A DNA stretch of 64,000 nt from Candidatus Sulfomarinibacteraceae bacterium (GCA_963733915.1 CAVTEP010000004.1:112758-176757); one strand, 5' to 3'; positions 26,183 through 41,999 are shown, counted from the first letter of the stretch. The notes: generated by a model not told the origin, from the sequence alone. Numbers and translations: made by a program.

Positions 26183-26212
26183 AAAAAACCCCTCCGTGGG
26201 GGAGGGGTTTTT
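26183..26212. terminator. Bidirectional intrinsic terminator (AAAAAACCCCTCC-GTGGG-GGAGGGGTTTTT)
   Basis: 7-bp GC stem flanked by an A-tract and a T-tract, between convergent genes ending at 26145 and 26231. Confidence 0.8.
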
Positions 26213-26230
26213 GTTGATTTGTCTGTGTGT

Positions 26231-26569
26231 TTACCAGCCGCTGTCGTAACCGCCGCGATCACCGCCGCCGCCGCGACCACCGCCGCCTCCACGACCGCCA
26301 CGACCGCCGCCGCCGGAACGCTCGCGAGCCTGGGCGACATCCACGCGAATGGTGCGGCCGTCGAGCTCGGTGCCGTTCATCGCCGCGACTGCCTTGTCGG
26401 CCGCGTCGTCATCATTGAAGGTGACAAAGCCGAAGCCGCGGGAGCGGCCCGAGTCACGATCAGAGATCACGATCGCCTCGGTGATCTCTCCGTAGGGACT
26501 GAATGCGGCGTGGAGGCCGTCATTGTTCGTGTCCCAACTCAAACTTCCGACAAACAACTTCTTCGACAT
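26231..26569 (-). CDS. Glycine/arginine-rich RRM (RNP-1) RNA-binding protein, copy 1
   Basis: RNP-2 LFVGSL and RNP-1 RGFGFVTF, with an RGG tail. ATG is the complement of 26567-26569. The remainder of track ORF 26231-27775 is a spurious extension. Confidence 0.9.
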   Translation of the reverse strand: MSKKLFVGSLSWDTNNDGLHAAFSPYGEITEAIVISDRDSGRSRGFGFVTFNDDDAADKAVAAMNGTELDGRTIRVDVAQARERSGGGGRGGRGGGGGRGGGGDRGGYDSGW

Positions 26570-26715
26570 ATCTCTTCTCATCTCCCTGGGCACTGCCATT
26601 TCCTGGCGCCCCCGTTTCGCACACCGTGGTGGAACCTGCTTCCACCCGAACAGAAGCCAGCCCCAATGGCCGGCAACGGAAATCCGAACATAGCAAACAT
26701 CCAGATGCAATTCAA
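26570..26715 (-). promoter_or_regulatory. Conserved leader + promoter (TTGAAT-17-TATGTT) of RRM copy 1
   Basis: -10 is the complement of 26687-26692 and -35 the complement of 26710-26715. The leader contains the two conserved hairpins shared by all five copies. Confidence 0.6.
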
Positions 26716-26767
26716 TCGTGCCTGAGCTCAGGAGTCTGCCGAGAATGCTAACCTCGATATCGATACC

Positions 26768-28729
26768 ATGACGAAGAACGACAAAGCCGCGACCGACTCT
26801 GAACGCTACCCGGGAGAGATCAAACTCGCCGAGTCGGCGTTTCACCTCCTGATGGAGCGAACCGCACGGGGCCGGATGCCCGGCGATGCGTTTCCAACCG
26901 GCGATGTCTACGACATCCTCGACACGGTGGGTGAGCTGCTTCACCTCGAGGCTCTCGAAGCAAAGGGTAAAAAGGTATCGAAGAAGAAGCTTGAGACGAT
27001 GGTTGATCGCCTGAGGTCCGCTCTCGAAGGCCTGGCGGCCTGGCCGGTGGGCTCCCGGGTTCTGGTCATCGCCCCGCTCGCCGAGGCCTTCGATAAAGCG
27101 GAACTCGACTGGGTTGTCGAGGAGCTCCTGGCGGCCCTGCCGGAGCCCGATGCCCTCAGCGCCAAAGAACGCAAAGCGACGGTCGACGCATACCGCCGCC
27201 TGGCGCCGGTCCGCACGCGACTGATGATCGAGATCGGCGTGTGGGACCCGAAGCTCGAGGGCCAGTTGCGCCTGCTTCGTGACCTGAGCGCCGACCAACC
27301 CGAGGACGACGATCTGCTCGAGATCCTCAAACGCGGCATCGTGCTCAACGCCCTCTCGGGACGTGAACACCTGCTGCTCGAGGAACGCCGCCGCCTCGCC
27401 GAAGCCGAGCCCCTGCCCGAGAAGATCGCCGAGGCTTTCGACCAGATCTCCGAAGAGCTGATTGGCATCGAGATCGCCCGCCTCGGCCTCCACCTCGTGC
27501 TGGCCGATGTCGTTGCGGCGGGCCTCGTCCCGAAAAAGGTTTCGGAACGACAAATCGTGGCCGGCGCGTATCTGGCGATGCTCCGCCGTGATGATCCGAG
27601 CCGGAAGCCGGATCTGCACAAGATCGCCGGTTGGGCAAAGATCAACCACCGCAAGCTCGACGTCTTTTCCGATGAGATGGCTGCCGTATTCAAGTGGAAA
27701 CCTCCCGGCCACGAAGGCTCGATTCAGGCCCGTGAAGAAAAACGGTGGCGGGTCGAATCGCTGACGCTCCAACACATGCCGGTGCGGTGGAGCCGGGGCG
27801 CCGATGCCGAGCGGCCTCCGTACTCGACGCGGGCGGCGCGCAAGCGGCTCAAAGAGCTTCGCGAGGTCGCGTGGATGATGATCGACTGGTTCGAGCCGGT
27901 GAGGTTCGTATCCGAGGCTTTTTCATACGGCGACGGCGCCCCCGATGAAATGGATCTCGAGATCGTGCGCGAGATCATCAATCTCTGGGAGGAACAGGCA
28001 CCGGTTCGTGGACTCGACGATCTCGACCAGAGTTACCTCGATGACGATTGGGTGGACGAGGAATGGGAGGACGACACCGAAGATTTCGGTGGCTCCCTGC
28101 CCACGATCGTCACCACCGACGGCGAGCCGTGGGTCTTCAGCACGACGACCTTCGACATCGCCAAGGGCGAGCGCAGCGAAGTCATCAAGTGTCTTGACTC
28201 GGTCGATGAGCTGAGCCGGGAGCAGGAGGCCGGCGGCGAGCGCTGGGTGTGGCTCGACCCGCGCACGGACGGCGATGTCGTCATCGCGAGCCTCACCCTC
28301 GAGGAGGACGTGCTCACCGTCGAGGCCCAGTCGGTCGCGAGATCGGCCAGGGTCAGCGCCCGGCTGGCGGATCTCATCGGCGACCGGATCATCTTGAAGG
28401 ACATCCACACCGAACAGCCGACGCCCGAGCTGATCGCGGATCGCGCCGCCGAACAGCTGGCAGTCGCCGACGGTCCGGGCATTCCGCGAGACGAGCAGAA
28501 ACGGATCGTGCTCGAGGTCATCGATCGACACTACCGCGCGTGGCCCGACCAGACCCTGCCGGCTCTGGGCGATATCACCCCCCGCGAAGCCGTCACCGAT
28601 CCGGTGCTTCGTGCCGAGGTGATCGCCATGCTCCTCGAGTTCGAGGAAAATACCCGCGCCGCCACCTGGCCGATGAACGAGTTCGACTTCGGCTTCCTGT
28701 GGAACGAGTTGGGTCTGAAGCGCGACTGA
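26768..28729 (+). CDS. Hypothetical protein, 653 aa, acidic, no recognised domain
   Basis: Long ORF with coding-like composition. The C-terminal LPALGDITPREAVTDPVLRAEVIAMLLEFE resembles a motif seen at the C-termini of various uncharacterised proteins (DUF2384-like). Confidence 0.7.
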   Translation: MTKNDKAATDSERYPGEIKLAESAFHLLMERTARGRMPGDAFPTGDVYDILDTVGELLHLEALEAKGKKVSKKKLETMVDRLRSALEGLAAWPVGSRVLVIAPLAEAFDKAELDWVVEELLAALPEPDALSAKERKATVDAYRRLAPVRTRLMIEIGVWDPKLEGQLRLLRDLSADQPEDDDLLEILKRGIVLNALSGREHLLLEERRRLAEAEPLPEKIAEAFDQISEELIGIEIARLGLHLVLADVVAAGLVPKKVSERQIVAGAYLAMLRRDDPSRKPDLHKIAGWAKINHRKLDVFSDEMAAVFKWKPPGHEGSIQAREEKRWRVESLTLQHMPVRWSRGADAERPPYSTRAARKRLKELREVAWMMIDWFEPVRFVSEAFSYGDGAPDEMDLEIVREIINLWEEQAPVRGLDDLDQSYLDDDWVDEEWEDDTEDFGGSLPTIVTTDGEPWVFSTTTFDIAKGERSEVIKCLDSVDELSREQEAGGERWVWLDPRTDGDVVIASLTLEEDVLTVEAQSVARSARVSARLADLIGDRIILKDIHTEQPTPELIADRAAEQLAVADGPGIPRDEQKRIVLEVIDRHYRAWPDQTLPALGDITPREAVTDPVLRAEVIAMLLEFEENTRAATWPMNEFDFGFLWNELGLKRD

Positions 28730-28753
28730 AAAACCCCTCCGCGGGGAGGGGTT
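28729..28753. terminator. Shared hairpin terminator AAAAACCCCTCCGCGGGGAGGGGTT
   Basis: Same sequence as at 33199, 38101 and 41506. The U-tract lies on the minus-strand transcript. Confidence 0.8.
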
Positions 28754-28775
28754 CGATAAATTGTCGAGTTACGGT

Positions 28776-29084
28776 TTACCAGCGGTCACCGGAGTCGCGA
28801 CGACCACCACGACCGCCGCCGCCGCCACCGGTACGTTGCTTGGCCTGGGCCACGTCTACCCGGATGGTGCGGCCGTCGAGCTCGGCCCCGTTGAGGGCTG
28901 CGATGGCCTTGTCGGCCGCGTCGTCATCCTCAAAGGTGACAAAGCCGAAACCCCGCGAGCGACCCGTGTCGCGGTCGCTGACCACAACGGCCTCGCTGAT
29001 CTCGCCGTGAACACCAAACGCGTTGCGCAGGCCTTCATCATTCGTGTCCCAGCTCAAACTTCCAACAAACAGTTTCTTCGCCAT
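28776..29084 (-). CDS. RRM RNA-binding protein, copy 2
   Basis: MAKKLFVGSLSWDTNDEGL ... RSRGFGFVTF ... GGGGGGRGG. ATG is the complement of 29082-29084. Confidence 0.9.
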   Translation of the reverse strand: MAKKLFVGSLSWDTNDEGLRNAFGVHGEISEAVVVSDRDTGRSRGFGFVTFEDDDAADKAIAALNGAELDGRTIRVDVAQAKQRTGGGGGGRGGRRDSGDRW

Positions 29085-29229
29085 TTCTCTTCTCATCTCC
29101 CTGGGCTTTGCCGCTTCACGGCGTGCCCGTTTCGCGATTATGGTGGACCCTGCGTCCACCCGTGCAGAAGCCAACCCCGGCGGCCGGCTACGGAGTCTGC
29201 AACATAGCATTCATCCTCATGTCAAGCAA
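29085..29229 (-). promoter_or_regulatory. Conserved leader + promoter of RRM copy 2
   Basis: -10 TATGTT is the complement of 29201-29206; -35 TTGCTT at 17 nt. Hairpins are conserved, with G-U-compatible substitutions. Confidence 0.55.
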
Positions 29230-29261
29230 TCAGGGAATAGGAGCCGCGCCCGACGTTTTTC

Positions 29262-32200
29262 ATGAGTGTGGGCACCACTGATTCAGAAACCATCGGCCTC
29301 GACAGCTCGACGGCCAGCGTCGAGGTGATGCCGACGGCCGTTGTCGGCGACACCTTCTCCAACCGCTACCGCCTGGATGAAGAGATCGGCCGCGGCGGCA
29401 TGGGCATCGTCTTTCGCGCCTGGGACTCGGATCTCGAGCGCCCGGTGGCGGTCAAGATCCTCGGCGCCCACCACCAGGTCGGCGACGCACGCGAGCGCCT
29501 CTTCCGCGAGGCCCGTGCCGCCGCCGCCCTCAGCCACCCGCACGTGGTTGCCGTCCACGACGTCGGCGAGCATCACCACATGCCGTACCTCGTCATGGAG
29601 CTGGTCGAGGGCCCGAGCCTCAAGGAACACAAACCCGAAACCCTCGACGAGACCATCGCGCTCGCCACCCAGCTCTGCAAGGCCCTCGAACACGCCCACC
29701 AGCACGGCCTCGTCCACCGCGACCTCAAGCCGGCCAATGTCCTGCTCGAGGACCGGGCCGATGGCCCATTCGTCAAGCTCGTCGACCTCGGTCTCGCCAT
29801 CCGCGAGCGCGCCGTCCGCATCACCCGCGAGGGCGGCATCACCGGCACCGTCGCCTACATGGCGCCCGAGCAGGCGCTGGGCAAGGAAATCGACGGCCGC
29901 ACCGATCTCTATGCCCTCGGCGTCATACTCTACGAGCTCACCACCGGCCGTCTGCCATTCGACGGCGACAACCCGCTGGCCGTCCTCAGCCAGCACCTGC
30001 ACGCACCGGTGGTCCCGCCCCGCACCTACCGCGCCGACCTTCCGGAGCACATCGAACGCGCCATCCTCCGCCTCCTTGCCAAAGAACCGGACGACCGTTT
30101 CGCCACCGCGAAAGAGGTCGCCGCGGTCCTCAACCAGAGCCCCGAGGCAGCGGCCATTTCGGCACCCATCGGTGTCTCCGCCGCCCTCGGCGGGCTGGTG
30201 CGCGGCCGCATGGTCGCCCGGGACACGGAAATCAACTCCCTCCGCCGCTCCTGGACCGAGACCAGCCTCGGCCGCGGTGGCATGGTACTGGTCTCCGGGG
30301 AGCCCGGCTCCGGCAAGACCCGCCTCGCCCGCGAGCTGGTCGACTACGCCCACATCACGGGCGGCGCCGTCATGTCGGGTGGATGCTACGAGCTGGAGGC
30401 AGCCACTCCGTATCTACCCTTCGTCGAAGCGCTGCGCTCCTGGGTCCATCAACGTACAGACGACGAGCTCCGCGCGGCCGCCGGTGACTCGGGTGCCGAG
30501 CTTGCCCGTCTGGCGCCCGAGCTCGGAAGCCGTATCGGCCCCTTCCCCGATGGCCCGGCGCTTTCGGCCGCCGAGCAGCGCCTCCGCCTCTACGACGGCG
30601 TCGCCCGCTGCCTCTTTCACCTCGCCGAGCCCGGGGGACTGCTGCTCTTTATCGACGATCTCCAGTGGGCCGACCAGGCCTCGCTGAGCCTGCTTCACTA
30701 CCTGGTCCGCCTCGCCGGCCGCGAGCGGCTGCTCATCCTCGGCTGCTACCGCGACACCGATCTCGACCGCTCCCACCCATTGTCCAGTGCCCTCGATCTT
30801 TGGAACCGCGAGCGAGCCTCGGTGCGGATCCACCTCGGCCGCCTCGGTCTGGACGGCACATCGGCCATGCTGAGGGTCCTGCTCGGCGACGAATGCATCT
30901 CCGAGCGGTTCTGCGCCGACATCCACCGCGAGACCGAGGGCAATCCGTTTTTTGTCGAAGAGGTCGTCAAGACCCTGGTCGACGAAAAGCAGCTCGTCTG
31001 CGAGTGCGGCGAGTGGCGGCGCCGCGACGAAGGAGAACATCTCGTCCTGCCCCAGGGCGTCAAGGCGGCCATCGGACGCCGGCTCGATCACGTGAGTGAG
31101 CCCACCACCGAGATCCTCCGCATTGCCGCCATTCTCGGCAAGACCTTCCAGTTCTCGGAGCTCGCGGCGGTCGCCGACCAGTCCGAGGACGCGCTCCTCG
31201 ATGCCCTCGACGAGGCCGTCGCGGGGCAGCTGCTGGAAACCGGATCCGGCGAAACCGTCGCCTTCACCCACGACAAGATCCGCGAGGTCCTTTACCACGA
31301 GCTCAACCCCATCCGTCGCCGCCGCCTCCACAGCCGTGTCGCCGAAGGGCTCGAAGCCCTGCGCGAGAGGGGAGGGCGGGTATCGGTCGAGGATCTCGCC
31401 CACCACTTCATGGGGGGCGGATGCCTCGAAAGGGGCTTCGACTACGCCATGCAGGCGGCCGCCGACGCCGCCACCCTCTTCGCCTACACCGACTCGATTC
31501 GCCTCTATGAACAGGCCCGCGACTGCGCCGAAGCGCTGGGTCGAACTGACGAGCTGCTGAAGATCGACACCGCCCTCGGCGATGTCTATTCCTTGAAGGG
31601 CGAGCCCGTCAACGCCACCGAGCACTACGAGCGGGCCCTCGCCGCCGTCGACGATCCCGCCGAGCAGCTGCGCCTCAAGTGCCTGATCGGCGAGGCCTAC
31701 GTCGTCGTCGGCGACGCCCGTGCATTGACCTACATCGAGGAGGCCAAGACGACCCTCGACCGCGAAGCCCAGCCTGCCGAGTTCGCCCGCGCGACCATGA
31801 TCGAGGCCCGCTTCCACCACTACCACGGTCAGTCCGGCACGGCCGCGGAGCTCCTCCTCCAGGCCATGGGGCCCGCCGAGAGGTCGGGCGACATCATGCT
31901 CCTGGCCTGGATCCACTTCTACCTCGCCGGCGCCTACCAACACCTGATCAACTTCGACGAGAGCAACCGTTGGACCCGACGAATCGTCGACCTCGGCGAG
32001 GCGCACAACAACCCCAGCATCGGTTCCATGGGTTACGAATTCCTGCAGGAGAACGCCTTCATGTGCGGCAAATGGAGCGAAAGCCTCGAGTATGCCGCTC
32101 ACCACCGCGAGCTGGGGGAAAAGGCGCACTCCTCCGACCGCCTGGCCTGGAACTTTCTACCCGTTTCCTACGCCAACTACGGCCTCGGCAACCTGGATGT

Positions 32201-32846: not shown

Positions 32847-32848
32847 TC

Positions 32849-33180
32849 CGTGCGGGCGAGACGCCCGCACCCGATGCCAACACGACCCACCCGCCCGGCA
32901 GCCGGGACGGCTGCCCCACAATCGTTTCTCGGCTCCTCGAAATGGCTTGTGGGGCACGGGTCTCGCAAACCGGGTGGGCGGTTTGTCATTGGGGCTGAGC
33001 GCCGCTCCCTCCCGCTGTCATCCCGAGCGAGTAAACGGAGTGAGCGAGTCGAGGGACCCCCTGAAGCCAGAGAGTCTTCCGTGCTCATCACTCTCCGGAG
33101 AATTGAGGGGGTCCTTCGCACTCGGCGCCTGCGGCGCCTCGCTCAGGATGACAGAGGGGGGGGCTTGCTCGGGATGACAA
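32849..33180. repeat. Cluster of three interspersed repeat families (REP-like hairpin 32849-32871; ~100-bp composite element 32884-32982; GTCATCC(C/T)GAGCG-family pair 33017-33180)
   Basis: Each has other copies in the window (54.1-54.4 kb and 58.3-58.5 kb). Confidence 0.75.
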
Positions 33181-33198
33181 TGAGGGCAGGCGCGCCAA

Positions 33199-33225
33199 TA
33201 AAAAACCCCTCCGCGGGGAGGGGTT
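33199..33225. terminator. Shared hairpin terminator AAAAACCCCTCCGCGGGGAGGGGTT
   Basis: Identical to the other cassette terminators. Confidence 0.8.
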
Positions 33226-33247
33226 CGGTTGATTGATGAGTTACGGA

Positions 33248-33553
33248 CTACCAGCGGTCGCTGTAACCGCCGCGGCCACCGCCGCCGCCGCCACCACCGG
33301 AACGCTGCTTCGCCTGGGCCACATCCACCCGGATGGTGCGACCGTCGAGCTCGGTACCGTTGAGGGCTGCAACGGCCTTGTCAGCCGCCTCGTCGTCCTC
33401 GAAGGTGACAAAGCCGAAACCACGCGAGCGACCCGTGTCGCGATCGCTGATCACAACGGCTTCGCTGACCTCGCCGTGGGCGCCGAACGCGCTGCGCAGG
33501 CCCTCGTCGTTCGTATCCCAGCTCAAACTACCAACAAACAGTTTCTTCGACAT
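33248..33553 (-). CDS. RRM RNA-binding protein, copy 3
   Basis: MSKKLFVGSLSWDTNDEGLRSAF ... RSRGFGFVTF. ATG is the complement of 33551-33553. Confidence 0.9.
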   Translation of the reverse strand: MSKKLFVGSLSWDTNDEGLRSAFGAHGEVSEAVVISDRDTGRSRGFGFVTFEDDEAADKAVAALNGTELDGRTIRVDVAQAKQRSGGGGGGGGRGGYSDRW

Positions 33554-33696
33554 ACTCTCTCTTTTCTCCCTGAGCGCTGCCTTCCGGTGCGCCCGATTCG
33601 CAAACCGTGGTGGACCCTGCGTCCACCCATACAGAAGCCGGCCCCGCTGGCCGGCAACAGACATCGCAACATAACAGATATCTTCTTCTATTTCAA
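33554..33696 (-). promoter_or_regulatory. Conserved leader + promoter (TTGAAA-17-TATGTT) of RRM copy 3
   Basis: -10 is the complement of 33668-33673; -35 is the complement of 33691-33696. Confidence 0.6.
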
Positions 33697-33799: not shown

Positions 33800-36025
33800 G
33801 TGTCCGACCGAGGACTTGTCATCATCGTCGACGACGACCAATCCAGCGCCGACACTCTGCAGGATCTCCTGGAAAAGGACGGCTACGACGTCGCCAGGAC
33901 GGCGAGCGGCCCGCACACCCTCGAGGCGATCGCCGCGGCCGGGGCCAACCTCGTGCTGCTGGACACCCTTCTCGAGCACACCAATCCGTTCGAACTGCTT
34001 GATGACATGAAGAAAAATCAGCAGGCGCGGGACCTTCCGGTGATCTTCATGACCACCCTCGACGACGCCGAGGCCCGACTCAAAGGGCTGGAGTCGGGGG
34101 ACGACCTGATCGTCAAGCCCTTCGACGCGCGCGAGGTCCTGGCGCGAATCGAGCGCCAGGTCACGGTCTCGAAGGTGCGGGCGGCGCTGCGCGAATCGGA
34201 GGCGAAGTTCCGGTCGGTCATGGAGTCGGCGATCGACGCGATCATCTCCGGTGACGCCGAAGGGAAGATCCGTTCGTGGAACACCGCCGCGACGGCGCTG
34301 TTCGGCTTTACCGAGGCCGAGGTGATCGGGCAGCCGATCGAGATCATCATCCCCGACCGCTATCACGAGGCTCACCAGGAGGGCATTCGCAGAGTGAGCT
34401 CGGGCGGTCCGAGCCACGTCATCGGCAAGACCGTCGAGCTTGCCGCGGTGCGCAAGGACGGGACCGAGTTCCCGGTCGAGCTGTCGCTGGCGACCTGGTT
34501 TCTGGACGAAAGGCGCTACTACACCGGCATCATCCGCGACATCAGCGAACGCAAACAGGCCGAGGAGAAGTTTCGCTCGGTCACCGAGTCGGCGATCGAC
34601 GCCATCATCTCGGCCGACCATGTGGGAGAGATCATCAGCTGGAACAAGGCCGCCACCCGCATCCTCGGCTACACCGAGGAAGAGACGGTCGGCCAGCGTC
34701 TCGAGCTGATCATCCCCGAACGCTTTCACGACGCGCACCGAGAGGGCATGAAACGGGTGACGGAGGCCGGAGAAAGCCGCGTTATCGGCTCTACGGTGGA
34801 GCTGGCTGCGCGCACGAAGAGCGGCGAGGAGGTACCGATCGAGCTTTCGCTGTCGACCTGGACGGTCCACGAGGAGCGCTACTACACCGGCATTATCCGC
34901 GACATCGGTGAGCGCAAGCGGGCGGAGGAGGCGCTTCGCCAGAGCGAGCAGGCGTTGCGCGAGAAGACCGAGGAGATGAAGCGGAAAAACGAGGTGCTGG
35001 AGGAGACGCTGCAACAGCTCAACGAGATGCACGACCAGCTCATCATCCAGGAGAAGATGGCCTCGCTGGGAAAGCTCAGCGCCGGCATGGCGCACGAGCT
35101 CAACAACCCCGCCTCCGCCGCACAGCGCAGCGCCGACCAACTCCAGAAGACCTTTTCACAGCTGCAGAACATCCAGCTGCGGCTGGGCGAGCAGAAGCTC
35201 GACCTCACCCAGATCCAACAGCTGGTGGAGCTGAACCGCATCGTCAAAGACCGCGTCCGCACGCCTGCCGAGATGAGCGCCATCGACCGCAGCGACCGGG
35301 AGTCCGCTCTCGAGGGGCGCCTGCACGAGCGGGGCATCGACACCACCGGCGAGCTGGTGCCGGCCCTGGTCAGCCTCGATTTCGACGAAGACGACTTCGA
35401 GTCCCTGGAGAAGACCTTTCCCGCCGAGCAGTATGCCCTCGTCGTCGATTGGCTGAGCTGCATGTTCGGGATCTACAGCCTGGTCGGCGAGATCGGCCTC
35501 GCCACCGGTCGCATCGTCGAGCTCGTCAAGGCCCTGAAGACCTACACCTACATGGACCAGGCGCCGGTGCAGTCGGTCGACTTGCGCGAAGGTCTGGACA
35601 ACACGTTGATCATTCTCCACAACAAGTTGAAGAAGGGTGTGACCGTGATCCGCGAATACGCCGAGGACCTGCCGGTCATCGAGGCCTACGCGAGCGAGCT
35701 CAACCAGGTGTGGACCAACATCATCGACAACGCCATCGACGCCATGGACGGCAAGGGAACGCTGATCATCAGGACGCGGTACGAAGACCCCTGGGTGGTG
35801 GTCGAGATCCAGGATGACGGCCACGGCATTCCCAAGGAGATACAGTCGAAGATCTTCGATCCCTTCTTCACCACCAAGGGCCCCGGCGAGGGCACCGGTC
35901 TGGGTCTGAACCTCAGCCTCAACCTCGTCGTCCAGAAACACCACGGAAAGATCACGGTGACGTCGAAACCGGGCAAGACCTGTTTCGCCGTGCGGTTGCC
36001 GATCGATTTCAAGCCCCCCGAATGA
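33800..36025 (+). CDS. Hybrid sensor: N-terminal receiver + three PAS domains + histidine kinase
   Basis: GTG 33800 after GGAGGG (track start is TTG 33779). Three near-repeated PAS units (FRSVxESAIDAIIS ... ERKxAEE), H-box GMAHELNNP, and G-boxes DDGHGI and GTGLGL. Confidence 0.9.
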   Translation: MSDRGLVIIVDDDQSSADTLQDLLEKDGYDVARTASGPHTLEAIAAAGANLVLLDTLLEHTNPFELLDDMKKNQQARDLPVIFMTTLDDAEARLKGLESGDDLIVKPFDAREVLARIERQVTVSKVRAALRESEAKFRSVMESAIDAIISGDAEGKIRSWNTAATALFGFTEAEVIGQPIEIIIPDRYHEAHQEGIRRVSSGGPSHVIGKTVELAAVRKDGTEFPVELSLATWFLDERRYYTGIIRDISERKQAEEKFRSVTESAIDAIISADHVGEIISWNKAATRILGYTEEETVGQRLELIIPERFHDAHREGMKRVTEAGESRVIGSTVELAARTKSGEEVPIELSLSTWTVHEERYYTGIIRDIGERKRAEEALRQSEQALREKTEEMKRKNEVLEETLQQLNEMHDQLIIQEKMASLGKLSAGMAHELNNPASAAQRSADQLQKTFSQLQNIQLRLGEQKLDLTQIQQLVELNRIVKDRVRTPAEMSAIDRSDRESALEGRLHERGIDTTGELVPALVSLDFDEDDFESLEKTFPAEQYALVVDWLSCMFGIYSLVGEIGLATGRIVELVKALKTYTYMDQAPVQSVDLREGLDNTLIILHNKLKKGVTVIREYAEDLPVIEAYASELNQVWTNIIDNAIDAMDGKGTLIIRTRYEDPWVVVEIQDDGHGIPKEIQSKIFDPFFTTKGPGEGTGLGLNLSLNLVVQKHHGKITVTSKPGKTCFAVRLPIDFKPPE

Positions 36026-36048
36026 CCGTGGAGGGGAAGGAGACGGAA

Positions 36049-37710
36049 ATGGCCAAACCAGTCGTGATGACGATCGATGACGAGCCGCACGTGCTCAACG
36101 CCATCGCGCGCGATCTGCAGGCGCACTATCAGAAGGACTACCGGATCGTCAAAGCGAGCTCGGGCACCGAAGCCCTGGAGACGGTGCAGGAATTCAAGCG
36201 CCGCAACACGCCGCTCGCGCTCTTCCTGGTCGACCAGCGCATGCCGGTCATGAGCGGCGTCGAGTTTCTGGCGGAAGCCATCAAGCTCTATCCGGAATCG
36301 AAAAGGGTCCTGCTGACCGCCTACGCCGATACCGATGCGGCGATCGCGAGCATCAACGCCATCGATCTCGACTATTACCTGATGAAACCCTGGGACCCCC
36401 CCGAGGAGCGCCTCTATCCCGTGCTGGATGACCTGTTGAGCGACTGGCTGGCCAGCGTGCCGGTCCCCTATGACGGCATCCGGGTGGCCGGGACCTTGTG
36501 GTCGGCGGGCTCGCACAACGTCAAGGAGTTTCTCGCCCGCAGCCAGATACCGTACAAGTGGTTGGATATCGAAAAAGACTCAGAGGCGAGGGAGCTGGTC
36601 GAGACGAGCTCCGATGGGCGGCCCCGGCTGCCGACCGTGTTCTTTCCGGATGGCAGCACCCTGGTGGACCCGGACCTCCGCTCGCTGGCGGAGAAGGTGG
36701 GTTTGCAGGCTTCCGCACAACAGCCGTTTTATGATCTGATCATCATCGGCGCCGGTCCGGCAGGCTTGGGTGCCGCCGTCTACGGGGCGTCCGAAGGACT
36801 GCGGACGGTGGTGATCGAGAAGGAAGCGGCCGGAGGGCAGGCCGGGACCAGCGCTCGGATCGAGAACTATCTCGGCTTTCCGAAGGGTATCAGCGGGGCA
36901 GACCTCACGCGACGCGCGACCACCCAGGCCAAACGCCTCGGGTCCGAGATCCTGACCGCCCAGGAGGTCGCCGGGCTGCGGGTCGAAGACCCCTATCGGA
37001 TCGTGACCCTGGACGACGGCAGCGAGCTGAGCTGCCACGCGCTCCTGGTGGCGACCGGCGTCAAAGTCCGCGAGCTCGACGTGCCGGGCATCGAGCCCCT
37101 GGTCGGAGCCTCGGTGTACTACGGAGCCGCGACCTCCGAAGCGGTTCACTATCAGGGCGGAAAGGTCTTTGTGATCGGCGGCGCCAACTCGGCCGGCCAG
37201 GGTGCGATGTTCCTCTCTCGGTTCGCGAGCGAGGTCACCATCCTGATCCGCGGGGACTCGTTGAAGACGAGCATGTCCCGGTATCTGATCGATCAGATCG
37301 AAGGGACGAAAAACATCTCGCTCAGGGTGAACACCGAGGTGACCGCCGTGGCCGGCAGCGACCATCTCGAGACAATAACGGTGAAGAACAACACAACCGG
37401 CGAGACCGAGACCACGCCGGCTGACGCGATCTTCATCTTCATCGGCGCGGTGCCCCACTCCGACATCGTGGCAGGCATCGTCGAGCGATCCGACGCGGGC
37501 TTCATTCTCACCGGACCGGATCTGATGCGCGATGGGCGCCGTCCGAAGAACTGGAAACTGCAGCGCGACCCGTTCCTGATGGAGACCAGCGTGCCCGGCA
37601 TTTTTGCGGCCGGCGACGTGCGCCACGGCGTCATCCGGCGGGTCGCCTCGGCGGTCGGCCAGGGTGCCATCGCGGTCAGCCTCGTGCACAAGTATCTCGA
37701 GACCGTGTGA
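36049..37710 (+). CDS. Fused response regulator / thioredoxin-disulfide-reductase-like FAD oxidoreductase
   Basis: ATG 36049 after AAGGAG (track start 36022 overlaps the HK stop). Receiver domain, then GAGPAGLGAAVYGASEGL and GGANSAGQGA dinucleotide-binding motifs. Confidence 0.85.
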   Translation: MAKPVVMTIDDEPHVLNAIARDLQAHYQKDYRIVKASSGTEALETVQEFKRRNTPLALFLVDQRMPVMSGVEFLAEAIKLYPESKRVLLTAYADTDAAIASINAIDLDYYLMKPWDPPEERLYPVLDDLLSDWLASVPVPYDGIRVAGTLWSAGSHNVKEFLARSQIPYKWLDIEKDSEARELVETSSDGRPRLPTVFFPDGSTLVDPDLRSLAEKVGLQASAQQPFYDLIIIGAGPAGLGAAVYGASEGLRTVVIEKEAAGGQAGTSARIENYLGFPKGISGADLTRRATTQAKRLGSEILTAQEVAGLRVEDPYRIVTLDDGSELSCHALLVATGVKVRELDVPGIEPLVGASVYYGAATSEAVHYQGGKVFVIGGANSAGQGAMFLSRFASEVTILIRGDSLKTSMSRYLIDQIEGTKNISLRVNTEVTAVAGSDHLETITVKNNTTGETETTPADAIFIFIGAVPHSDIVAGIVERSDAGFILTGPDLMRDGRRPKNWKLQRDPFLMETSVPGIFAAGDVRHGVIRRVASAVGQGAIAVSLVHKYLETV

Positions 37711-37772
37711 CAACGAAGCGTGCGCGGGTGGGCGGATTTCCTAAGACCCTTCGCATTTCGGGAGATACCCTC

Positions 37773-38028
37773 GTGCAGAAGAAACTGACCATCACGATTG
37801 ACGAAGAGGTCTACAAGGGATTGCATGCCGTTATCAGTCGAGGGCGATTCAGCCGTTTTCTCGAAAAACCTGGCACGGCCACACGTCGTTTCGCCCGATT
37901 TCGAAGCCGCCTACCATGAGGCGACCGGCGATGAGGTCAGGGAAGCGGAGGCCAGGAGTGGGCCGAGGGCGTAATCGGAGATATCGCCGATAACCCGAGC
38001 TGAGGTGTGGTGGGTGAGTTTTGATCCT
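37773..38028 (+). pseudogene. Decayed copy of the antitoxin/MazF module found intact at 40903-41452
   Basis: Nucleotide-level alignment to 40903-41155: A5 instead of A4 at ~37865 and a 1-nt deletion at ~37952 break the antitoxin frame. The toxin ATG is lost (GATAAC vs GATGAC), and the toxin is truncated after EVWWVSFDP, replaced by a repeat element. Confidence 0.75.
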
Positions 38029-38100
38029 CCTTCTCGCTCGCTCAAGATGACGGTACGGGGAAGCCGCTTCCCCGGTTTGGCAGCCTGGCGGGCACATCAC

Positions 38101-38127
38101 TAAAAAACCCCTCCGCGGGGAGGGGTT
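38101..38127. terminator. Shared hairpin terminator AAAAACCCCTCCGCGGGGAGGGGTT
   Basis: Identical to the other cassette terminators. Confidence 0.8.
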
Positions 38128-38149
38128 CAATTGATGAATGAGTGACGGT

Positions 38150-38443
38150 CTACCAGCGGTCGCTGTAGCCGCCGCGGCCACCGCCATTCGAACGCTGCTT
38201 GGCCTGGGCGACGTCCACCTTGATGGTGCGGCCGTCGGGCTCGGCCCCGTTGAGCGCCGCAACGGCCTTGTCGGCCGCCTCGTCATCCTCAAAGGTGACA
38301 AAGCCGAATCCATGCGAACGACCCGTGTCGCGATCGCTGATCACGATGGCTTCGCTGATCTGGCCATGGGTAGTGAAGACGCTGCGCAGGCCCTCGTCGT
38401 TCGTATCCCAGCTCAAACTTCCAACAAACAATTTCTTCGAAAC
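38150..38443 (-). CDS. RRM RNA-binding protein, copy 4 (canonical start lost; possibly decaying)
   Basis: The homologous ATG position reads GTT (complement of 38441-38443). The only in-frame starts are TTG/GTG at 38521/38518, inside the conserved leader. RNP-1 is altered (RSHGFGFV), and there is an L-to-P change (AEPDG). Confidence 0.6.
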   Translation of the reverse strand, partial: VSKKLFVGSLSWDTNDEGLRSVFTTHGQISEAIVISDRDTGRSHGFGFVTFEDDEAADKAVAALNGAEPDGRTIKVDVAQAKQRSNGGGRGGYSDRW

Positions 38444-38588
38444 GACTCTCTTTTTCTCCCTGAGCGCTACCTTTCTGGGCGCGCCATTTTCGCAAACCGC
38501 GGTGAACCCTGCGTTCACCAAAACAGAAGCCGGCCCCGTTGGCCGGCAACAGACATCGCAACAAAACAGATATGTTCTTCCAATTCAA
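38444..38588 (-). promoter_or_regulatory. Conserved leader + weakened promoter (TTGAAT-17-TTTGTT) of RRM copy 4
   Basis: -10 is the complement of 38560-38565 and carries a T-for-A change at the conserved second position. Confidence 0.5.
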
Positions 38589-38740
38589 TCATTTTCTCTT
38601 GAAGTTTTCGATCGCACGGCAATCCCTCCTTCCGAGCGCGGGTAGAAACGACCCTTCTTCGTCCTCCAAAAGGACTTCGCGCAACGTCCCGCCGTCGCTT
38701 TGGGGAGGCCGCAGAAAGGCGCCAGGGGCTGATGCGGGCG

Positions 38741-38769
38741 TTGAAATCTGGTATAACCGGAGTTATACT
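38741..38769 (+). promoter_or_regulatory. Promoter TTGAAA-17-TATACT ending 6 nt before GTG 38776 (leaderless architecture)
   Basis: Hexamers and spacing read directly; no SD before the start codon. Confidence 0.5.
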
Positions 38770-38775
38770 CCAGTC

Positions 38776-39012
38776 GTGAAAACCGCGATCTCGATTCCGG
38801 ACGAAGTCTTCGATGCGGCCGAGGACATGGCCAGACGCCTCGGTATGAGCCGCAGCCAGTTTTACGCGACCGCGGTCCGCGACTACCTCGAGGCGCATCG
38901 CAGCCGCGGCGTAACGGCTCGCCTCGATCAGATTTACGAGAACGCCGATTCTCGTCTCGACCTCCGCGTTGCCGAGGCGCAGACGGTTTCGCTCGGCGAA
39001 GACGAGTGGTGA
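38776..39012 (+). CDS. Type II antitoxin, ribbon-helix-helix (CopG/MazE-like)
   Basis: VKTAISIPDEVFDAAEDMARRLGMSRSQFYATAVRDYLE is a typical RHH. Its stop overlaps the MazF start. The upstream part of track ORF 38539-39012 is rejected. Confidence 0.7.
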   Translation: MKTAISIPDEVFDAAEDMARRLGMSRSQFYATAVRDYLEAHRSRGVTARLDQIYENADSRLDLRVAEAQTVSLGEDEW

Positions 39013-39350
39013 TGCAGCGCGGTGAGATCTGGTGGGCGACCCTCCCGGGCCCAACAGGCTCGGGGCCGGGGAAACGCCGCCCCGTCCTGATCGTCCAGTC
39101 CGATGCTTTTAACGCCAGCCGGCTGCAGACAGTGATCGCCGTTGTGATCACCTCAAACGTGGAGCTCGCGGCCGCACCCGGCAATATCCTCCTGCGGCGA
39201 CGCGACACCAAGCTGTCAAAAGACTCCGTGGCCAACGTCTCACAGCTGATCACCCTCGACCGGTCCTTCCTCAATGACCGGGTGGGGGAGCTCCCGAAGA
39301 GACTCAGCGGCGTGCTCGACGAAGGGCTCCGCCTGGTTCTCGGTTTGTAA
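39012..39350 (+). CDS. mazF: Type II toxin, MazF/PemK family
   Basis: RGEIWWATL ... RRPVLIVQSDAFN ... VVITSN. ATG 39012 sits in a TGATG overlap (track start is GTG 39006). Confidence 0.8.
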   Translation: MQRGEIWWATLPGPTGSGPGKRRPVLIVQSDAFNASRLQTVIAVVITSNVELAAAPGNILLRRRDTKLSKDSVANVSQLITLDRSFLNDRVGELPKRLSGVLDEGLRLVLGL

Positions 39351-39377
39351 CCACGGATTCCTGCCACCATCCCTCAT

Positions 39378-39625
<248 letters not shown>

Positions 39626-39668
39626 TTTTAGGGAGAAATAGCCAACAACACGAGGAGCGGCCACGACC

Positions 39669-40651
39669 ATGAAAAACTCGGAAACTCGGATCTCGAAATC
39701 TCACCCATCGGTCTCGGCACCTGGGCCATCGGCGGTGACGGCGGCGGTTTCACCTGGGGTCCGCAGGATGATGCCAAGTCGATCGCGGCCATCCGCCGCA
39801 GCGTCGAGCGCGGCATCAACTGGCTCGACACCGCACCGGTCTATGGCCTGGGTCATTCGGAAAAGGTGGTGGCGCGGGCCCTCGCGGAGATCGGCAGCGC
39901 TGGCCGGCCGCTGGTCTTCACCAAGTGCGGGCTGATCTGGGACGACGGCGGCAACATTAGCCACCACATCAAGGCCGACTCGATCCGCTCCGAGGTCGAG
40001 GACAGCCTCGGCCGCCTCGATGTCGACGTCATCGATCTCTACCAGATCCACTGGCCGGCCTTTCCCCCCGGCGGCGACGCCCCCGATATAGAGGAGGCGT
40101 GGGAAGCCCTCGTCGAACTCAAGGAGCAGGGCAAGCTCCGCGCCATCGGCGTCTCCAACTTCGACGCCGGCCAGCTCGAGCGCGCCCAGAAGATCGCCCC
40201 GATCACCTCGCTGCAACCGCCGTACTCCGCCCTCATGCGCCAGATCGAGGACGAGATCCTACCCTACTGCCTCGAGCACGATATCGGCACCGTTGTCTAC
40301 TCACCGATGCACAACGGCATGCTCACCGGCACCATGACCCGCGAGCGCATCGACAACCTCCCCGAGTCCGACTGGCGCAAGCAGCTCAACCCGGCCTTCA
40401 AGGAACCGCTCCTGACCAAATGTCTCGAGTTTGTCGAGGTGCTGCGCGGTATCGCCGATCGTCACGGCCGCTCGGTCGCCGAGGTCGCCCTTGCCTGGAC
40501 GCTTCGCCACCCGGCCGTCACAGGCGCCATCGTTGGCGCCCGCGACGCCGAACAGGTGGACGGCTTCATCGGCGCCATGGACTTCCGGCTCGGCACCGAA
40601 GACCTCGACGAGATCGAGGCGGCGCTGCCCGACTCCTTGACGTTGCTTTAG
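39669..40651 (+). CDS. Aldo/keto reductase; start codon is out of frame with the body (1-nt indel in an A-run)
   Basis: The AKR frame (EKLGNSDLEISPIGLGTWAIGG ... DTAPVYGLGHSEKVV ...) is open from ~39650 but has no start before GTG 39866. ATG 39669 is followed by A5; one extra A would give MKKLGNSDLEIS. Confidence 0.8.
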
Positions 40652-40828
40652 CCCGCTTATCTCACCGGGTTTCGTGACGAGGGCGGCGAAGCGCAAGTAT
40701 CCGGTGGGTTTGGCGTGAATCGGGCGACGCAGTCGTAGTAGCGCTACGTCGAGGAGCACGATTTGCGACAAGCACGGCGGGACGCCGCGATTCGGCGTCC
40801 GTAGTAGACACCCGGTGAGATAAGCGGG
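40652..40828. mobile_element. MITE-like element with perfect 19-bp terminal inverted repeats (CCCGCTTATCTCACCGGGT / ACCCGGTGAGATAAGCGGG)
   Basis: TIRs at 40652-40670 and 40810-40828, non-coding interior. Solo end copies at 48874-48925, 52486-52530 and 56815-56837. Confidence 0.6.
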
Positions 40829-40866
40829 TTAGGAGCAGAATCGTCATTTGCTCGCGGAATCGCCAT

Positions 40867-40887
40867 TATACGTGTATAGTACGTATA
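40867..40887. promoter_or_regulatory. Inverted repeat TATACGT-N7-ACGTATA upstream of the antitoxin gene (candidate TA operator)
   Basis: Perfect 7-bp arms, 16 nt upstream of ATG 40903, in an AT-rich pocket. Confidence 0.45.
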
Positions 40888-40902
40888 GGTGGAGAAACTC
40901 CT

Positions 40903-41133
40903 ATGCAGAAAAAACTTACCATCACGATTGATGAAGAGGTCTACAAGGGATTGCATGCCGTCGTCGGTCGAGGGCGGATCAGCCGCTTTCTCGAAAACCT
41001 GGCGAGGCCACACGTCGTTTCGCCTGATCTCGAAGCCGCGTACCACGAAATGGCCGGTCACGAGGTGCGCGAGGCTGAGGCCGAGGAGTGGGCCGAAGGC
41101 GTGATCGGAGATATCGCTGATGACACGCGGTGA
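40903..41133 (+). CDS. Type II antitoxin (RHH-type; [33 protein letters not shown]...)
   Basis: Small protein with an acidic C-terminus. Overlaps the downstream MazF by 14 nt. Confidence 0.7.
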
Positions 41134-41452
41134 GGTGTGGTGGGTGAGCTTTGATCCTTCGATCGGCGGTGAAATCAAGAAAACCCGACCGGCGGTCATC
41201 GTCAGCAACGACGCCTCGAACCGTCACCTCAACCGGGTACAGGTCGTTCCCCTGACGTCGAATGTGGATCGAGTGTTCCCGAGCGAGGCTCTTGTCCGGC
41301 TGGATGGCGAGACACGAAAAGCCATGGCCGATCAAATCGCCACAGTCAGCAAGCGCCGTTTGGTAAACCTCGCGGGACGTCTCTCGGGAGATGACATGCA
41401 GGCCGTCGAGCACGCGATTGGCATCCAGCTTCAGTTGGTTTCCGTGGCTTGA
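41120..41452 (+). CDS. mazF: Type II toxin, MazF/PemK family
   Basis: [30 protein letters not shown] ... VVPLTSN. Confidence 0.85.
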
Positions 41453-41505
41453 CCGAGGCCCTGAGTCAGCCTCCTGCTCAAGGGCAGGCCGAAATCTCGG
41501 GCACC

Positions 41506-41531
41506 AAAAAACCCCTCCGCGGGGAGGGGTT
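41506..41531. terminator. Shared hairpin terminator AAAAACCCCTCCGCGGGGAGGGGTT
   Basis: Identical to the other cassette terminators. Confidence 0.8.
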
Positions 41532-41553
41532 CGGTTGATTGATGAGTTACGGA

Positions 41554-41856
41554 TTACCAGCGGTCGCTGTAGCCGCCGCGGCCACCGCCGCCACCGCCAT
41601 TCGAACGCTGCTTGGCCTGGGCGACGTCCACCTTGATGGTGCGGCCGTCGAGATCGGTCCCGTTGAGCGCCGCAACGGCCTTGTCGGCCGCCTCGTCATC
41701 CTCGAAGGTGACAAAGCCGAATCCGCGCGAACGACCCGTGTCGCGATCGCTGATCACGATGGCTTCGCTGATCTGGCCATGGGTACTGAAGGCGCTGCGC
41801 AGGCCCTCGTCGTTCGTATCCCAGCTCAAACTTCCAACAAACAATTTCTTCGACAT
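41554..41856 (-). CDS. RRM RNA-binding protein, copy 5
   Basis: 100 aa with RNP-2 LFVGSL, RNP-1 RGFGFVTF and a GGGGGGRGG tail. Matches the track ORF exactly. Confidence 0.92.
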   Translation of the reverse strand: MSKKLFVGSLSWDTNDEGLRSAFSTHGQISEAIVISDRDTGRSRGFGFVTFEDDEAADKAVAALNGTDLDGRTIKVDVAQAKQRSNGGGGGGRGGYSDRW

Positions 41857-41999
41857 GACTCTCTTTTTCTCCCTGAGCGCCGCCTTCCGGCGCGCCCGTT
41901 TCGCAAACCGCGGTGAACCCTGCGTTCACCAAAACAGAAGCCGGCCCCGTTGGCCGGCAACAGACAACGTAAGATAGCAGATATCTTCTTTAATATCAA
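41857..41999 (-). promoter_or_regulatory. Conserved leader + promoter (TTGATA-17-TATCTT) of RRM copy 5
   Basis: -10 is the complement of 41971-41976 and -35 the complement of 41994-41999. Hairpins at 41912-41930 and 41940-41958. Confidence 0.6.

Follow-up and report, generated by a model that had tools for sequence, protein, structure and literature searches.

Five RRM genes in an acidobacterial locus share a conserved leader of predicted structure and an RRM-specific terminator hairpin

Five RRM genes and what they share

Five RRM_1 genes lie close together on the minus strand of an acidobacterial genome (positions 26183–41999 of the 64-kb stretch analysed, here called the window), and the question they raise is whether they are copies of a dispersed, modular repeat, as an earlier note on this DNA proposed, or members of an older gene cluster. 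The five reading frames that the note had located were all borne out, with Pfam RRM_1 (PF00076) matching 5 of 5 proteins (E-values 2.6e-22 to 3.2e-24; profile positions 1–70). The proteins are 97–112 aa long and contain the RNP-2 and RNP-1 motifs in a single RRM_1 domain (in copy 4, R is replaced by H at the first RNP-1 position), followed by a Gly/Arg-rich C-terminal tail (e.g., GGGGGGRGGYSDRW); Trp is the last residue of the RRM proteins, including those of all relatives. With an RRM domain and a Gly/Arg-rich tail, all five belong to the bacterial single-RRM glycine-rich Rbp type.

A repeat search of the window recovered the CDS, the leader and the terminator region in five copies each (families D1, D3, D5 and D8). 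In a five-way alignment, the conserved stretch begins at the −35 box and ends past the terminator T-run, so that conservation reaches beyond the CDS, and the promoter, leader and terminator claimed to be shared are indeed common property. Identity between copies is 68–95% in the leader, 77–96% in the RRM domain and 67–98% in the 3′UTR and terminator; flank identity is mostly 28–49%, in keeping with the claim that sequence outside the unit is unrelated, but this claim does not hold for copies 4 and 5 (37761–38028 versus 40891–41158, 85%). These results support the reading of each copy as a self-contained unit with a promoter, leader, CDS and terminator of its own (Table 1). The labels previously given to the neighbouring genes were confirmed by a Pfam scan of ten neighbouring proteins.

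Table 1 Features of the five RRM units (positions in the window).
Feature	Position	Strand	Remarks
Copy 1 terminator hairpin	26183–26212	−	CCCCUCC-CCCAC-GGAGGGG; A-run and T-run flanks on both strands
Copy 1 RRM gene, 112 aa	26231–26569	−	Most divergent paralogue; orthologue L020_1724
Copy 1 leader and promoter	26570–26715	−	Putative leader 26570–26686
Copy 1 promoter boxes	26687–26692; 26710–26715	−	−10 TATGTT; −35 TTGAAT
Copy 2 terminator hairpin	28728–28757	−	Abuts stop codon (28729) of convergent 653-aa ORF
Copy 2 RRM gene, 102 aa	28776–29084	−	
Copy 2 leader and promoter	29085–29229	−	−35 TTGCTT 29224–29229
Copy 3 terminator hairpin	33200–33229	−	
Copy 3 RRM gene, 101 aa	33248–33553	−	Identical protein on metagenome contig L079
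Copy 3 leader and promoter	33554–33696	−	TTGAAA-17-TATGTT, TG before −10
Decayed antitoxin-2 and first ~35 nt of mazF-2	37761–38028	+	85% to 40891–41158
Copy 4 terminator hairpin	38102–38131	−	
Copy 4 RRM reading frame	38150–38443	−	Probable pseudogene
Copy 4 leader and promoter	38444–38588	−	Damaged −10 box
Intact duplicated segment: antitoxin-2, mazF-2, copy 5 unit	40891–42008	.	
Copy 5 terminator hairpin	41506–41535	−	
Copy 5 3′UTR, most of	41536–41553	−	Hairpin 5′ flank counted with terminator; putative conversion tract
Copy 5 RRM gene, 100 aa	41554–41856	−	Intact recent duplicate of copy 4
Copy 5 leader and promoter	41857–41999	−	TTGATA-17-TATCTT, TG before −10

The sigma70-like promoter ascribed to every copy was sustained in part: aligned boxes are present in all five, but a consensus promoter scan scored copies 3 and 5 only (9/12 matches, TG before −10), leaving those of copies 1, 2 and 4 as aligned equivalents unscored by that scan, and copy 4 has a −10 box of TTTGTT instead of TATGTT. 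The common hairpin terminator stood up fully. Every RRM gene is followed by a 7-bp stem (all G/C plus one A/U) and then 5–6 T, as expected of an intrinsic terminator, and the CCCCTCC-N-GGAGGGG hairpin occurs exactly 5 times in the window versus 0 expected. The same stem pattern gave 46 matches in ~0.8 Mb of loci in addition to the 5 in the window, each just 3′ of an RRM gene; the CCCCUCC/GGAGGGG stem is specific to RRM genes. We could not uphold the suggestion that this terminator serves convergent transcription each time: T-runs flank the hairpin on both sides in copy 1 only (26184–26212 scored on the plus strand), whereas the plus strand after the hairpin reads TTCG or TTCA in copies 2–5, where a T-run is confined to the RRM side.

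A conserved leader with three predicted hairpins

Sequences resembling promoter boxes are found ~110 nt before the ATG, and what lies between is conserved and apparently structured; the extent of this putative leader and its transcription start site were placed from these promoter-like sequences. When copy 1 is compared with the other copies, the leader is more conserved than synonymous sites (76–79% identity, versus 58–64% at third codon positions). The five window leaders were used to build a covariance model; searched in the loci of relatives (cut-off E ≤ 0.01), it returned 45 further matches, all abutting an RRM start codon, with scores of 53–124 bits in Thermoanaerobaculia and 21–39 bits mainly in Holophagae loci. 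The ~110-nt leader is predicted, with good comparative support, to fold into three covarying hairpins, P1, P2 and P3: pairing holds in 91% of cells, and 22 of 31 pairs changed on both sides, in an alignment partly fitted to the model, and these pairing and covariation values were reached by 0 of 500 shuffles, with slid controls at 33–49% paired. An independent MAFFT alignment likewise contains compensatory changes in P2, together with G-U variants in P1 that are sensible at the RNA level only. Folding energies of single leaders were unexceptional (z from −0.7 to −1.4) and their long-range pairings inconsistent; because the single-sequence z-scores are unremarkable, the case for leader structure rests on covariation, not energy. 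Compensatory changes and a fixed site upstream of one gene family are the properties expected of a structured cis-regulatory RNA, and on this comparative basis the leader appears to be one.

P1, with the core GGCC-NNCGG-GGCC, extends further. A P1-like hairpin was found upstream of 51 of 90 RRM genes (background, 0.009 per 200 nt), among them RRM genes of Planctomycetota and of some loci labelled Myxococcales or delta-proteobacteria. A metagenome scan with a degenerate 24-nt P1 pattern placed the ATG 101–107 nt past the P1 start among the matches listed, about half of the matches listed being chance occurrences in G+C-rich coding DNA; the matches bear on the specificity of the pattern and say little about individual strains. 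We set aside the idea that the P1 palindrome acts as an operator in DNA, given G-U at one P1 pair in 11 of 49 sequences. Sequestration of the Shine-Dalgarno region by the CUUCUG linker is at most conceivable, as this pairing is not kept in the Holophagae versions. Rfam 15 gave no match at gathering score across the whole 64-kb window, Chlorobi-RRM (RF01697) included, and nothing relevant at E ≤ 10 in 41400–42100, which holds the copy 5 unit; our literature search found no description of the leader or the terminator.

Age, duplication and recombination of the units

For each paralogue lineage of the window, a separate orthologue exists in other Thermoanaerobaculia genomes, where the RRM locus is syntenic and adjoins a conserved FHA-domain gene. 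Third-codon-position identity between paralogues is only 58–78%, and the paralogues are therefore old; judging from these comparisons, the window holds four old paralogue lineages and one recent duplicate. The situation that the earlier note had named as contrary to its proposal, the same five genes as syntenic, anciently diverged paralogues, is thus largely what we observed. Nor is the density of RRM genes an oddity of this window, as several side by side are the norm in this family, and relatives often carry the units as plain tandem arrays with ~570-nt spacing (L005 and L006 are pure tandem arrays). The description of a dispersed modular repeat rather than a tandem one is accurate insofar as the units are self-contained here, but relatives hold the same units in tandem. 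Intervening genes differ between close relatives: L079, a near-identical metagenome contig, has copies 3 and 2 adjacent without kinase or two-component genes, L003 has a same-strand peptidase as neighbour, and L156 has a different order. The tandem arrays in relatives favour reading the dispersed layout as an array with unrelated genes between its units, and not as a spreading cassette.

Copy 4 is probably a decaying pseudogene, with GTT instead of ATG at the start-codon site (38441–38443), the substitutions R44H (in RNP-1) and L69P, and lineage-specific changes that comprise 9 non-synonymous versus 1 synonymous. Copies 4 and 5 trace back to a segmental duplication that spans at least 1.1 kb; relative to the intact segment, 37761–38028 carries one 1-nt insertion and one 1-nt deletion, and the remainder of mazF is lost. 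In copy 5, the 3′UTR has copy-3-type differences from the stop codon over about 27 nt, and the L079 orthologue is of copy-4 type, suggesting a short gene-conversion tract from copy 3. L079 itself carries a chimera of copy-4 promoter and copy-3 body and is missing intervening genes over stretches of 4.9 kb and 3.95 kb. Recombination of RRM units with each other is thereby supported, on the basis of one short metagenome contig in which assembly error across repeats is possible. Exact-protein look-ups found no identical protein on record for copies 1, 2 and 5, the F420-type reductase and mazF-2; copy 3 is the sole protein looked up that has an exact match.

Explanations and comparison with known systems

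We consider it fairly probable, from the comparative evidence and by analogy, that this is an old, recombining rbp-type cluster whose units are kept by selection and whose leader controls rbp expression post-transcriptionally. The cluster would be conserved family-wide within the Thermoanaerobaculia (Acidobacteriota), with each RRM gene its own transcription unit of sigma-70-type promoter, ~110-nt leader, CDS and intrinsic terminator, and the likeness of the non-coding parts would reflect selection, not recent cassette spread. Most likely, Rbp would bind the sequence-conserved P1, or the UCUG stretches flanking it, and so exert feedback on its own mRNA and those of the other copies, with temperature-dependent access to the ribosome-binding site possibly contributing. 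Strain-variable genes (kinase, two-component, toxin-antitoxin, reductases) would lie between the units of a probable former tandem array, whose ~0.5-kb direct repeats may undergo homologous recombination and gene conversion.

A mobile cassette, in which the ~0.5-kb unit would copy itself to new places through site-specific recombination, with the palindromic hairpin of the terminator serving somewhat in the manner of attC, would account for the perfectly conserved inverted repeat of the stem at every copy, for the variable genes between units, and for the position of the copy-1-type unit relative to the F420-type reductase gene, which is on one side in the window and on the other in L020. We nevertheless regard it as very improbable: there are separate orthologues for each copy in conserved order and locus, the paralogues are old, each unit carries its own promoter, the copy-4/5 duplication exceeds the unit, and the Pfam scan found no recombinase or integrase domain in the ten neighbouring proteins. 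The sole crossover mapped, that of L079, falls at the promoter/leader boundary and not at the hairpin. Of the proposed spread by recombination at terminator hairpins it is recombination between units that survives, and an integron-like cassette is not supported.

Another suggestion, that the RRM proteins or antisense read-through control the convergent signalling genes as a local regulon, is improbable as well. All intervening genes in the window lie on the strand opposite the RRM genes, 3 of 5 have their ends no more than 55 nt from an RRM terminator, and the copy 2 promoter is divergent from a Ser/Thr kinase gene (start, 29262), the only recurring neighbour pair, found again in L012 and L008; yet close relatives have other neighbours or none (L079, L003, L005, L006 and L156), which makes dedicated control of the neighbours unlikely, and strong terminators speak against read-through. 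We are similarly doubtful that the leader is an attenuator or ligand-sensing riboswitch, with P1 and the following U-rich stretch acting as a conditional terminator instead of a protein-binding or temperature-sensing element. In its favour, all three hairpins are highly conserved and a terminator scan flagged P1 plus UUCUGUUUUG in copies 1, 3, 4 and 5, but the U-tract is weak, with interruptions (UUCUG...), and in copy 2 and many relatives it is not rich in U, a search for a conserved anti-terminator alternative pairing found none, the leader is without an Rfam family match, and the downstream gene encodes an RNA-binding protein, neither a metabolic enzyme nor a transporter. A broader form of the cluster reading is tentative and, in our estimate, rather unlikely: P1 would be a cross-phylum operator for single-RRM autoregulation, forming with the 3′ hairpin a new autoregulatory mRNA architecture in Acidobacteriota (the 5′ element also in Planctomycetota and some Myxococcota), and the arrays would be homology scaffolds that shuffle accessory genes. 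If so, the arrays of ~0.5-kb units would let strains excise and exchange kinases, two-component genes and toxin-antitoxin pairs and bring them into new combinations.

The role of bacterial RRM proteins as global RNA regulators, and as cold-shock factors that do not belong to the Csp family, has only recently begun to be appreciated. For the control of these proteins themselves this locus offers a concrete candidate, a predicted three-hairpin leader whose P1 recurs before RRM genes of two or more further phyla, going by the assignment of the loci, and which is paired with a terminator of RRM-unique stem sequence, neither matching Rfam. The locus also suggests that conserved direct repeats can destabilise a chromosomal region between near-identical strains.

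The Chlorobi-RRM RNA motif is located upstream of RRM genes. This candidate cis-regulatory RNA (RF01697), named for those genes and classed among likely cis-regulatory RNAs, not among riboswitches (PMC2864571), does not match the acidobacterial leader, which is a separate motif. The E. coli cspA 5′UTR (cold box/thermosensor), as treated in excerpts of PMC13370968, is a long structured leader before a small, abundant, multi-copy, autoregulated gene for a nucleic-acid-binding protein; the likeness is a functional analogy only, as protein fold and leader sequence are unrelated to the RRM units. Closer are Bacteroides RbpA, RbpB and RbpC, which the same excerpts describe as small single-RRM proteins with several copies per genome, as here, with 5′UTRs of 122–155 nt, cold induction and redundant self-feedback, transcriptional and post-transcriptional, in 5′UTR reporter fusions (PMC13370968). 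Their genes have widely separated locus numbers (BT0784, BT1887 and BT3840), whereas the acidobacterial genes form one array, and a shared leader motif or gene-specific terminator was not found described in those excerpts. Cyanobacterial Rbp proteins (RbpA1, Rbp1–3) also combine an RRM with a glycine-rich tail and have at least three paralogues per genome; they belong to another phylum. They are cold-induced, rbp1 rises on deletion of rbp2 and rbp3, and Rbp3 binds mRNA 3′ ends (PMC12232666), and the title of Ehira et al. 2005 (cited in PMC4152365) links the rbpA1 5′UTR to low-temperature transcript accumulation. That the conserved 3′ hairpin of the acidobacterial units would be an Rbp target is speculation; for the leader, the analogy with Bacteroides and cyanobacterial Rbp proteins makes feedback or cold-responsive control of rbp expression the most likely role.

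Five self-contained RRM units

The five minus-strand ORFs that the earlier note had described as RRM genes (copies 1–5) were all found, at the same coordinates, and all five proteins matched the Pfam RRM_1 profile across its full 70 positions (E 2.6e-22 to 3.2e-24). A repeat search of the window returned the CDS, leader and terminator region each as a five-copy family. Alignment of the five units, taken with generous flanks, revealed similarity from the -35 box to just past the terminator T-run, with pairwise identities of 68–95% in the leader, 77–96% in the RRM domain and 67–98% in the 3'UTR and terminator; the module thus includes a shared leader and terminator, as had been proposed, and not the CDS alone. 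The flanks, described as unrelated, were indeed only 28–49% identical in most pairwise comparisons; the exception was copies 4 and 5, where 37761–38028 and 40891–41158 match at 85%. Pfam agreed with the labels given to the neighbouring genes (F420-type oxidoreductase; a 653-aa protein without a family; a kinase with AAA_16 and TPR; a receiver-PAS-histidine kinase; a receiver-thioredoxin-reductase-like protein; an aldo-keto reductase; two PemK/MazF toxins). With some corrections the observation is confirmed, the units being real and self-contained, and its interpretation is supported in part. Every RRM protein, in the window and in the loci from other genomes, ends in Trp after a Gly/Arg tail (...DRW, ...GGW, ...SRW), in Thermoanaerobaculia and Holophagae alike.

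Coordinates of the RRM units, related loci and other repeats
Feature	Locus	Positions
RRM genes, copies 1–5 (minus strand)	window	26231–26569, 28776–29084, 33248–33553, 38150–38443, 41554–41856
FHA-domain gene	window	24260–25333
Head-to-tail units	L005	5306, 5880, 6430
Head-to-tail units	L006, L015, L002, L011, L009	
Head-to-tail units	metagenome contigs L084, L103, L113	
Spacer, copy-2-type unit/kinase	window; L012; L008	29229–29262; 1357–1617; 8183–8291
211-nt leader match	L016; L117	4248–4458; 1343–1553
Non-Acidobacteriota RRM leaders	L047, L050, L060, L063, L067, L072	~100–130 nt upstream of position 6001
Non-Acidobacteriota RRM leaders	L065, L078; L064, L066, L076	
P1-like hairpin before CspA-type gene	L140 (metagenome contig Ga0207651_10004566)	6554–6614
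REP-like hairpin	window	24107–24146, 42110–42149, 43900–43939, 43992–44031, 45623–45662
Reading-frame remnant	window	42020–42105
Further copies of the remnant's 3' gene end	window	51118–51170, 54937–54989
Small dispersed repeats	window	33104–33160, 38030–38100, 39450–39506, 58311–58367; also 32866–32921, 54133–54188, 58347–58402
Three tandem 62-nt units, AACTCAAAACTC-rich	window	58612–58797
(AAAGGAGA)n runs, ~1.1 kb apart	window	304–370, 1420–1470
Internal coding repeats, ~80-nt units encoding ...SSPTVTNCTFSGN... (presumably beta-helix-like)	window	44529–45167
Internal coding repeats, 126-nt units (presumably TPR-like)	window	47920–48759
Cysteine-rich units of ~110–200 nt in a 682-aa minus-strand ORF (48886–50934)	window	48998–49842

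A structured leader and a constant terminator stem

A covariance model built from the five window leaders scored these at 114–139 bits and returned 45 more matches at E ≤ 0.01, all 45 ending at an RRM-gene start codon; scores were 53–124 bits in Thermoanaerobaculia and 21–39 bits in a set of mainly Holophagae loci. From a MAFFT alignment of 39 leaders, RNAalifold predicted hairpins P1 and P2, part of P3 and a short linker/Shine-Dalgarno pairing, with UA-to-CG, AU-to-GC and GC-to-AU exchanges in P2. In a model-based alignment of 50 leaders, which is fitted to the model so that its pairing figures are biased towards structure, 91% of cells were paired and 22 of 31 pairs changed on both sides; the observed pairing values were reached by none of 500 shuffles, and sliding the 3' partner lowered pairing to 33–49%. 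Holophagae leaders have whole P2 and P3 stems swapped for other complementary sequences, and G-U variants in P1 argue for a role at the RNA rather than the DNA level. Single leaders had unexceptional folding energies (z -0.7 to -1.4). Compared with copy 1, the other copies are 58–64% identical at third codon positions and 76–79% identical in the leader; in closer paralogue pairs the two identities are similar. In two loci (L016, L117) the model matches 211 nt where ~120 is usual, indicating a ~90-nt insertion inside those leaders.

A P1-like hairpin (stem of at least 6 bp, five-base loop NNYGK, CC/GG closing) occurs in the 200 nt preceding 51 of the 90 RRM genes in the loci, against a background of 0.009 per 200 nt; some of these 51 genes are from Planctomycetota, others from loci with a Myxococcales or delta-proteobacteria label. 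These leaders look like related but distinct families: in Planctomycetota a further hairpin (CCCUCGGGGAGCGAGGG) and a conserved run of AAACCCACGAAACCCGUU come after the P1-like one, and the Myxococcales/delta-proteobacteria-labelled group shows a conserved leader of its own, with GGUGGUCC-AUCGU-GGGCUGCC at about -179. A metagenome scan used the P1-plus-linker pattern only; among the 83 matches listed, 37 have an RRM start codon 101–107 nt downstream, two more real members escaped that filter, ~40 are chance matches in coding DNA and four lie too close to a contig end. Among these listed matches, 29 of 31 complete RRM genes end with a CCCCUCC/GGAGGGG stem. One metagenome contig (L140) carries a P1-like hairpin (GCCGGCC-AAGGT-GGCCGGC, then CUCUGG) ~80 nt upstream of a CspA-type cold-shock gene (MIEGTVKWFNESKGFGFL), a single case that could be chance.

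The pattern CCCCTCC-N(2-7)-GGAGGGG has five matches in the window, where none is expected, and all 46 matches in ~0.8 Mb of loci lie directly 3' of an RRM gene. All copies do carry the common hairpin terminator that had been described: the CCCCUCC/GGAGGGG stem is identical in every copy and genome examined, Holophagae included, and only the loop varies. A plus-strand T-run follows the hairpin at copy 1 only, so the proposal that it serves convergent transcription every time does not hold. A stable stem is normally enough for a terminator; its constant sequence therefore points to a possible added role beyond termination. Binding of Synechocystis Rbp3 to the 3' ends of mRNAs (PMC12232666) is, by analogy, only a lead towards such a role.

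Old paralogues, recombination and decay

Scanning the genome collection with the copy 3 protein yielded 78 loci, the closest being Thermoanaerobaculia metagenome-assembled genomes, many labelled Candidatus Sulfomarinibacteraceae (Acidobacteriota), and head-to-tail units with ~570-nt spacing occur in many relatives. In a neighbour-joining tree of RRM-domain DNA, different orthologues partner different window copies: L020 and L034 group with copy 1, L003_6001 and L004 with copy 3, and L003_1052 with copies 4 and 5, and copy 2 falls in a group including L012, L015_6604 and L008_8411. In seven loci the RRM cluster has a homologue of the FHA-domain gene on its downstream side. The tree groups and the FHA/kinase synteny indicate a syntenic locus with four old lineages of paralogues and a single recent duplicate; this comes close to the syntenic, anciently diverged paralogues that the earlier note had set against its dispersed repeat.

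Copies 4 and 5, as their related flanks indicate, arose when a segment of at least 1.1 kb was duplicated. Segment 37761–38028, beside copy 4, holds a second antitoxin gene copy and the first ~35 nt of mazF, with a 1-nt insertion, a 1-nt deletion and the other ~275 nt of mazF gone. Copy 4 itself is damaged, and its side of the duplication is decaying: it has GTT at the start codon position, a -10 box of TTTGTT (undamaged form TATGTT), and nine non-synonymous and one synonymous nucleotide changes since its split from copy 5, including R44H (in RNP-1) and L69P; copy 5 gained none. Since the derived D68 is common to copy 5 and its counterpart in the metagenome locus L079 (JGI sample 3300060480), and copy 4 lacks it, the duplication predates the split of the window and L079 strains.

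L079 encodes a protein identical to copy 3 and is 94–98% identical to the window across shared DNA. Its order, in RRM sense, is globin, a copy-5-like unit, mazF-2/antitoxin-2, aldo-keto reductase, mazF-1/antitoxin-1, one RRM unit, ~45–55 nt and the copy 2 unit. The RRM unit beside copy 2 has a copy-4-type upstream flank and promoter up to GAACATATCTGTT, and copy 3 sequence from the -10 box on. Missing from L079 are 4.9 kb (copy 4 body, toxin-antitoxin remnant, both two-component genes, copy 3 promoter) and 3.95 kb containing the kinase. The 4.9-kb junction would most simply be read as a deletion in L079 through homologous recombination of copy 4 with copy 3. The 3'UTR is of copy-4 type in the L079 copy-5-like unit and of copy-3 type in window copy 5; ~7 differences clustered within ~27 nt, in units otherwise ~98% identical, would fit a short gene-conversion tract in window copy 5. 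Order also varies in L003 (a 1013-aa peptidase and a 369-aa protein, on the strand of the RRM genes, between copy-4/5-type and copy-3-type units), L156 (653-aa ORF homologue, one RRM unit, toxin-antitoxin pair 2, kinase) and L020 (copy-1-type unit on the opposite side of the reductase gene from the window), although these, like L079, are metagenome assemblies with possible errors across repeats; the unique sequence of the L079 copy 3/copy 2 spacer supports that junction as real.

Several other repeats adjoin the units. A reading-frame remnant (...RRLVYQVLKDERTVKVLRMWTHYQ*), which we take to resemble the C-terminus of a RelE/ParE-type toxin, adjoins the copy 5 promoter; after it comes one of the window's five REP-like hairpins (GTGCGGGCGTCCCGCCCGCAC, conserved flanks), just upstream of that promoter. 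L156 has similar elements between its mazF-2 and kinase genes. Small dispersed repeats (core ...GCTCAGGATGACA...) stand directly downstream of the copy 3 and copy 4 terminators, one at the mazF-2 loss site beside copy 4, and may be miniature mobile elements.

Spread, neighbouring genes and likely function

The earlier note had offered two readings, a cassette spreading by recombination at terminator hairpins and a regulon for the neighbouring signalling genes. Site-specific spread at the hairpin is argued against by the orthology of the copies with those of relatives, the synteny of the locus, the third-codon-position divergence between copies, the lack of a recombinase among ten neighbours scanned, and the crossover in the L079 unit, which maps to the promoter/leader boundary and not to the hairpin; the similarity of the units reflects conserved function in an old gene family. 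Dedicated control of neighbours is likewise unlikely, as neighbouring genes are gained and lost between close relatives, the recurring copy 2/kinase pair being a notable exception. Three genomes have that pair, a copy-2-type unit divergent from a Ser/Thr kinase across a very short common spacer; each of them has close relatives (L079; L005, L006) with no kinase at the site, and in L008 the kinase is missing its central AAA/TPR part.

Three features appear to be new: the leader with its three hairpins, the terminator specific to RRM genes and the array of recombining units. They matched no family in Rfam 15, Chlorobi-RRM included, and our literature searches turned up no account of them; the RRM proteins as a family, and the general way in which they are regulated, are already known. 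By analogy with three published systems, the leader would most likely provide post-transcriptional control of expression of the single-RRM protein genes (rbp), through Rbp feedback, temperature, or both. According to PMC13370968, Bacteroides RRM-1 proteins have 5'UTRs of 122–155 nt, are cold-induced and show redundant feedback, tested by 5'UTR reporter fusions; the cyanobacterial Rbp proteins (PMC12232666) and E. coli cspA (as described in PMC13370968) are the second and third systems behind this reading.
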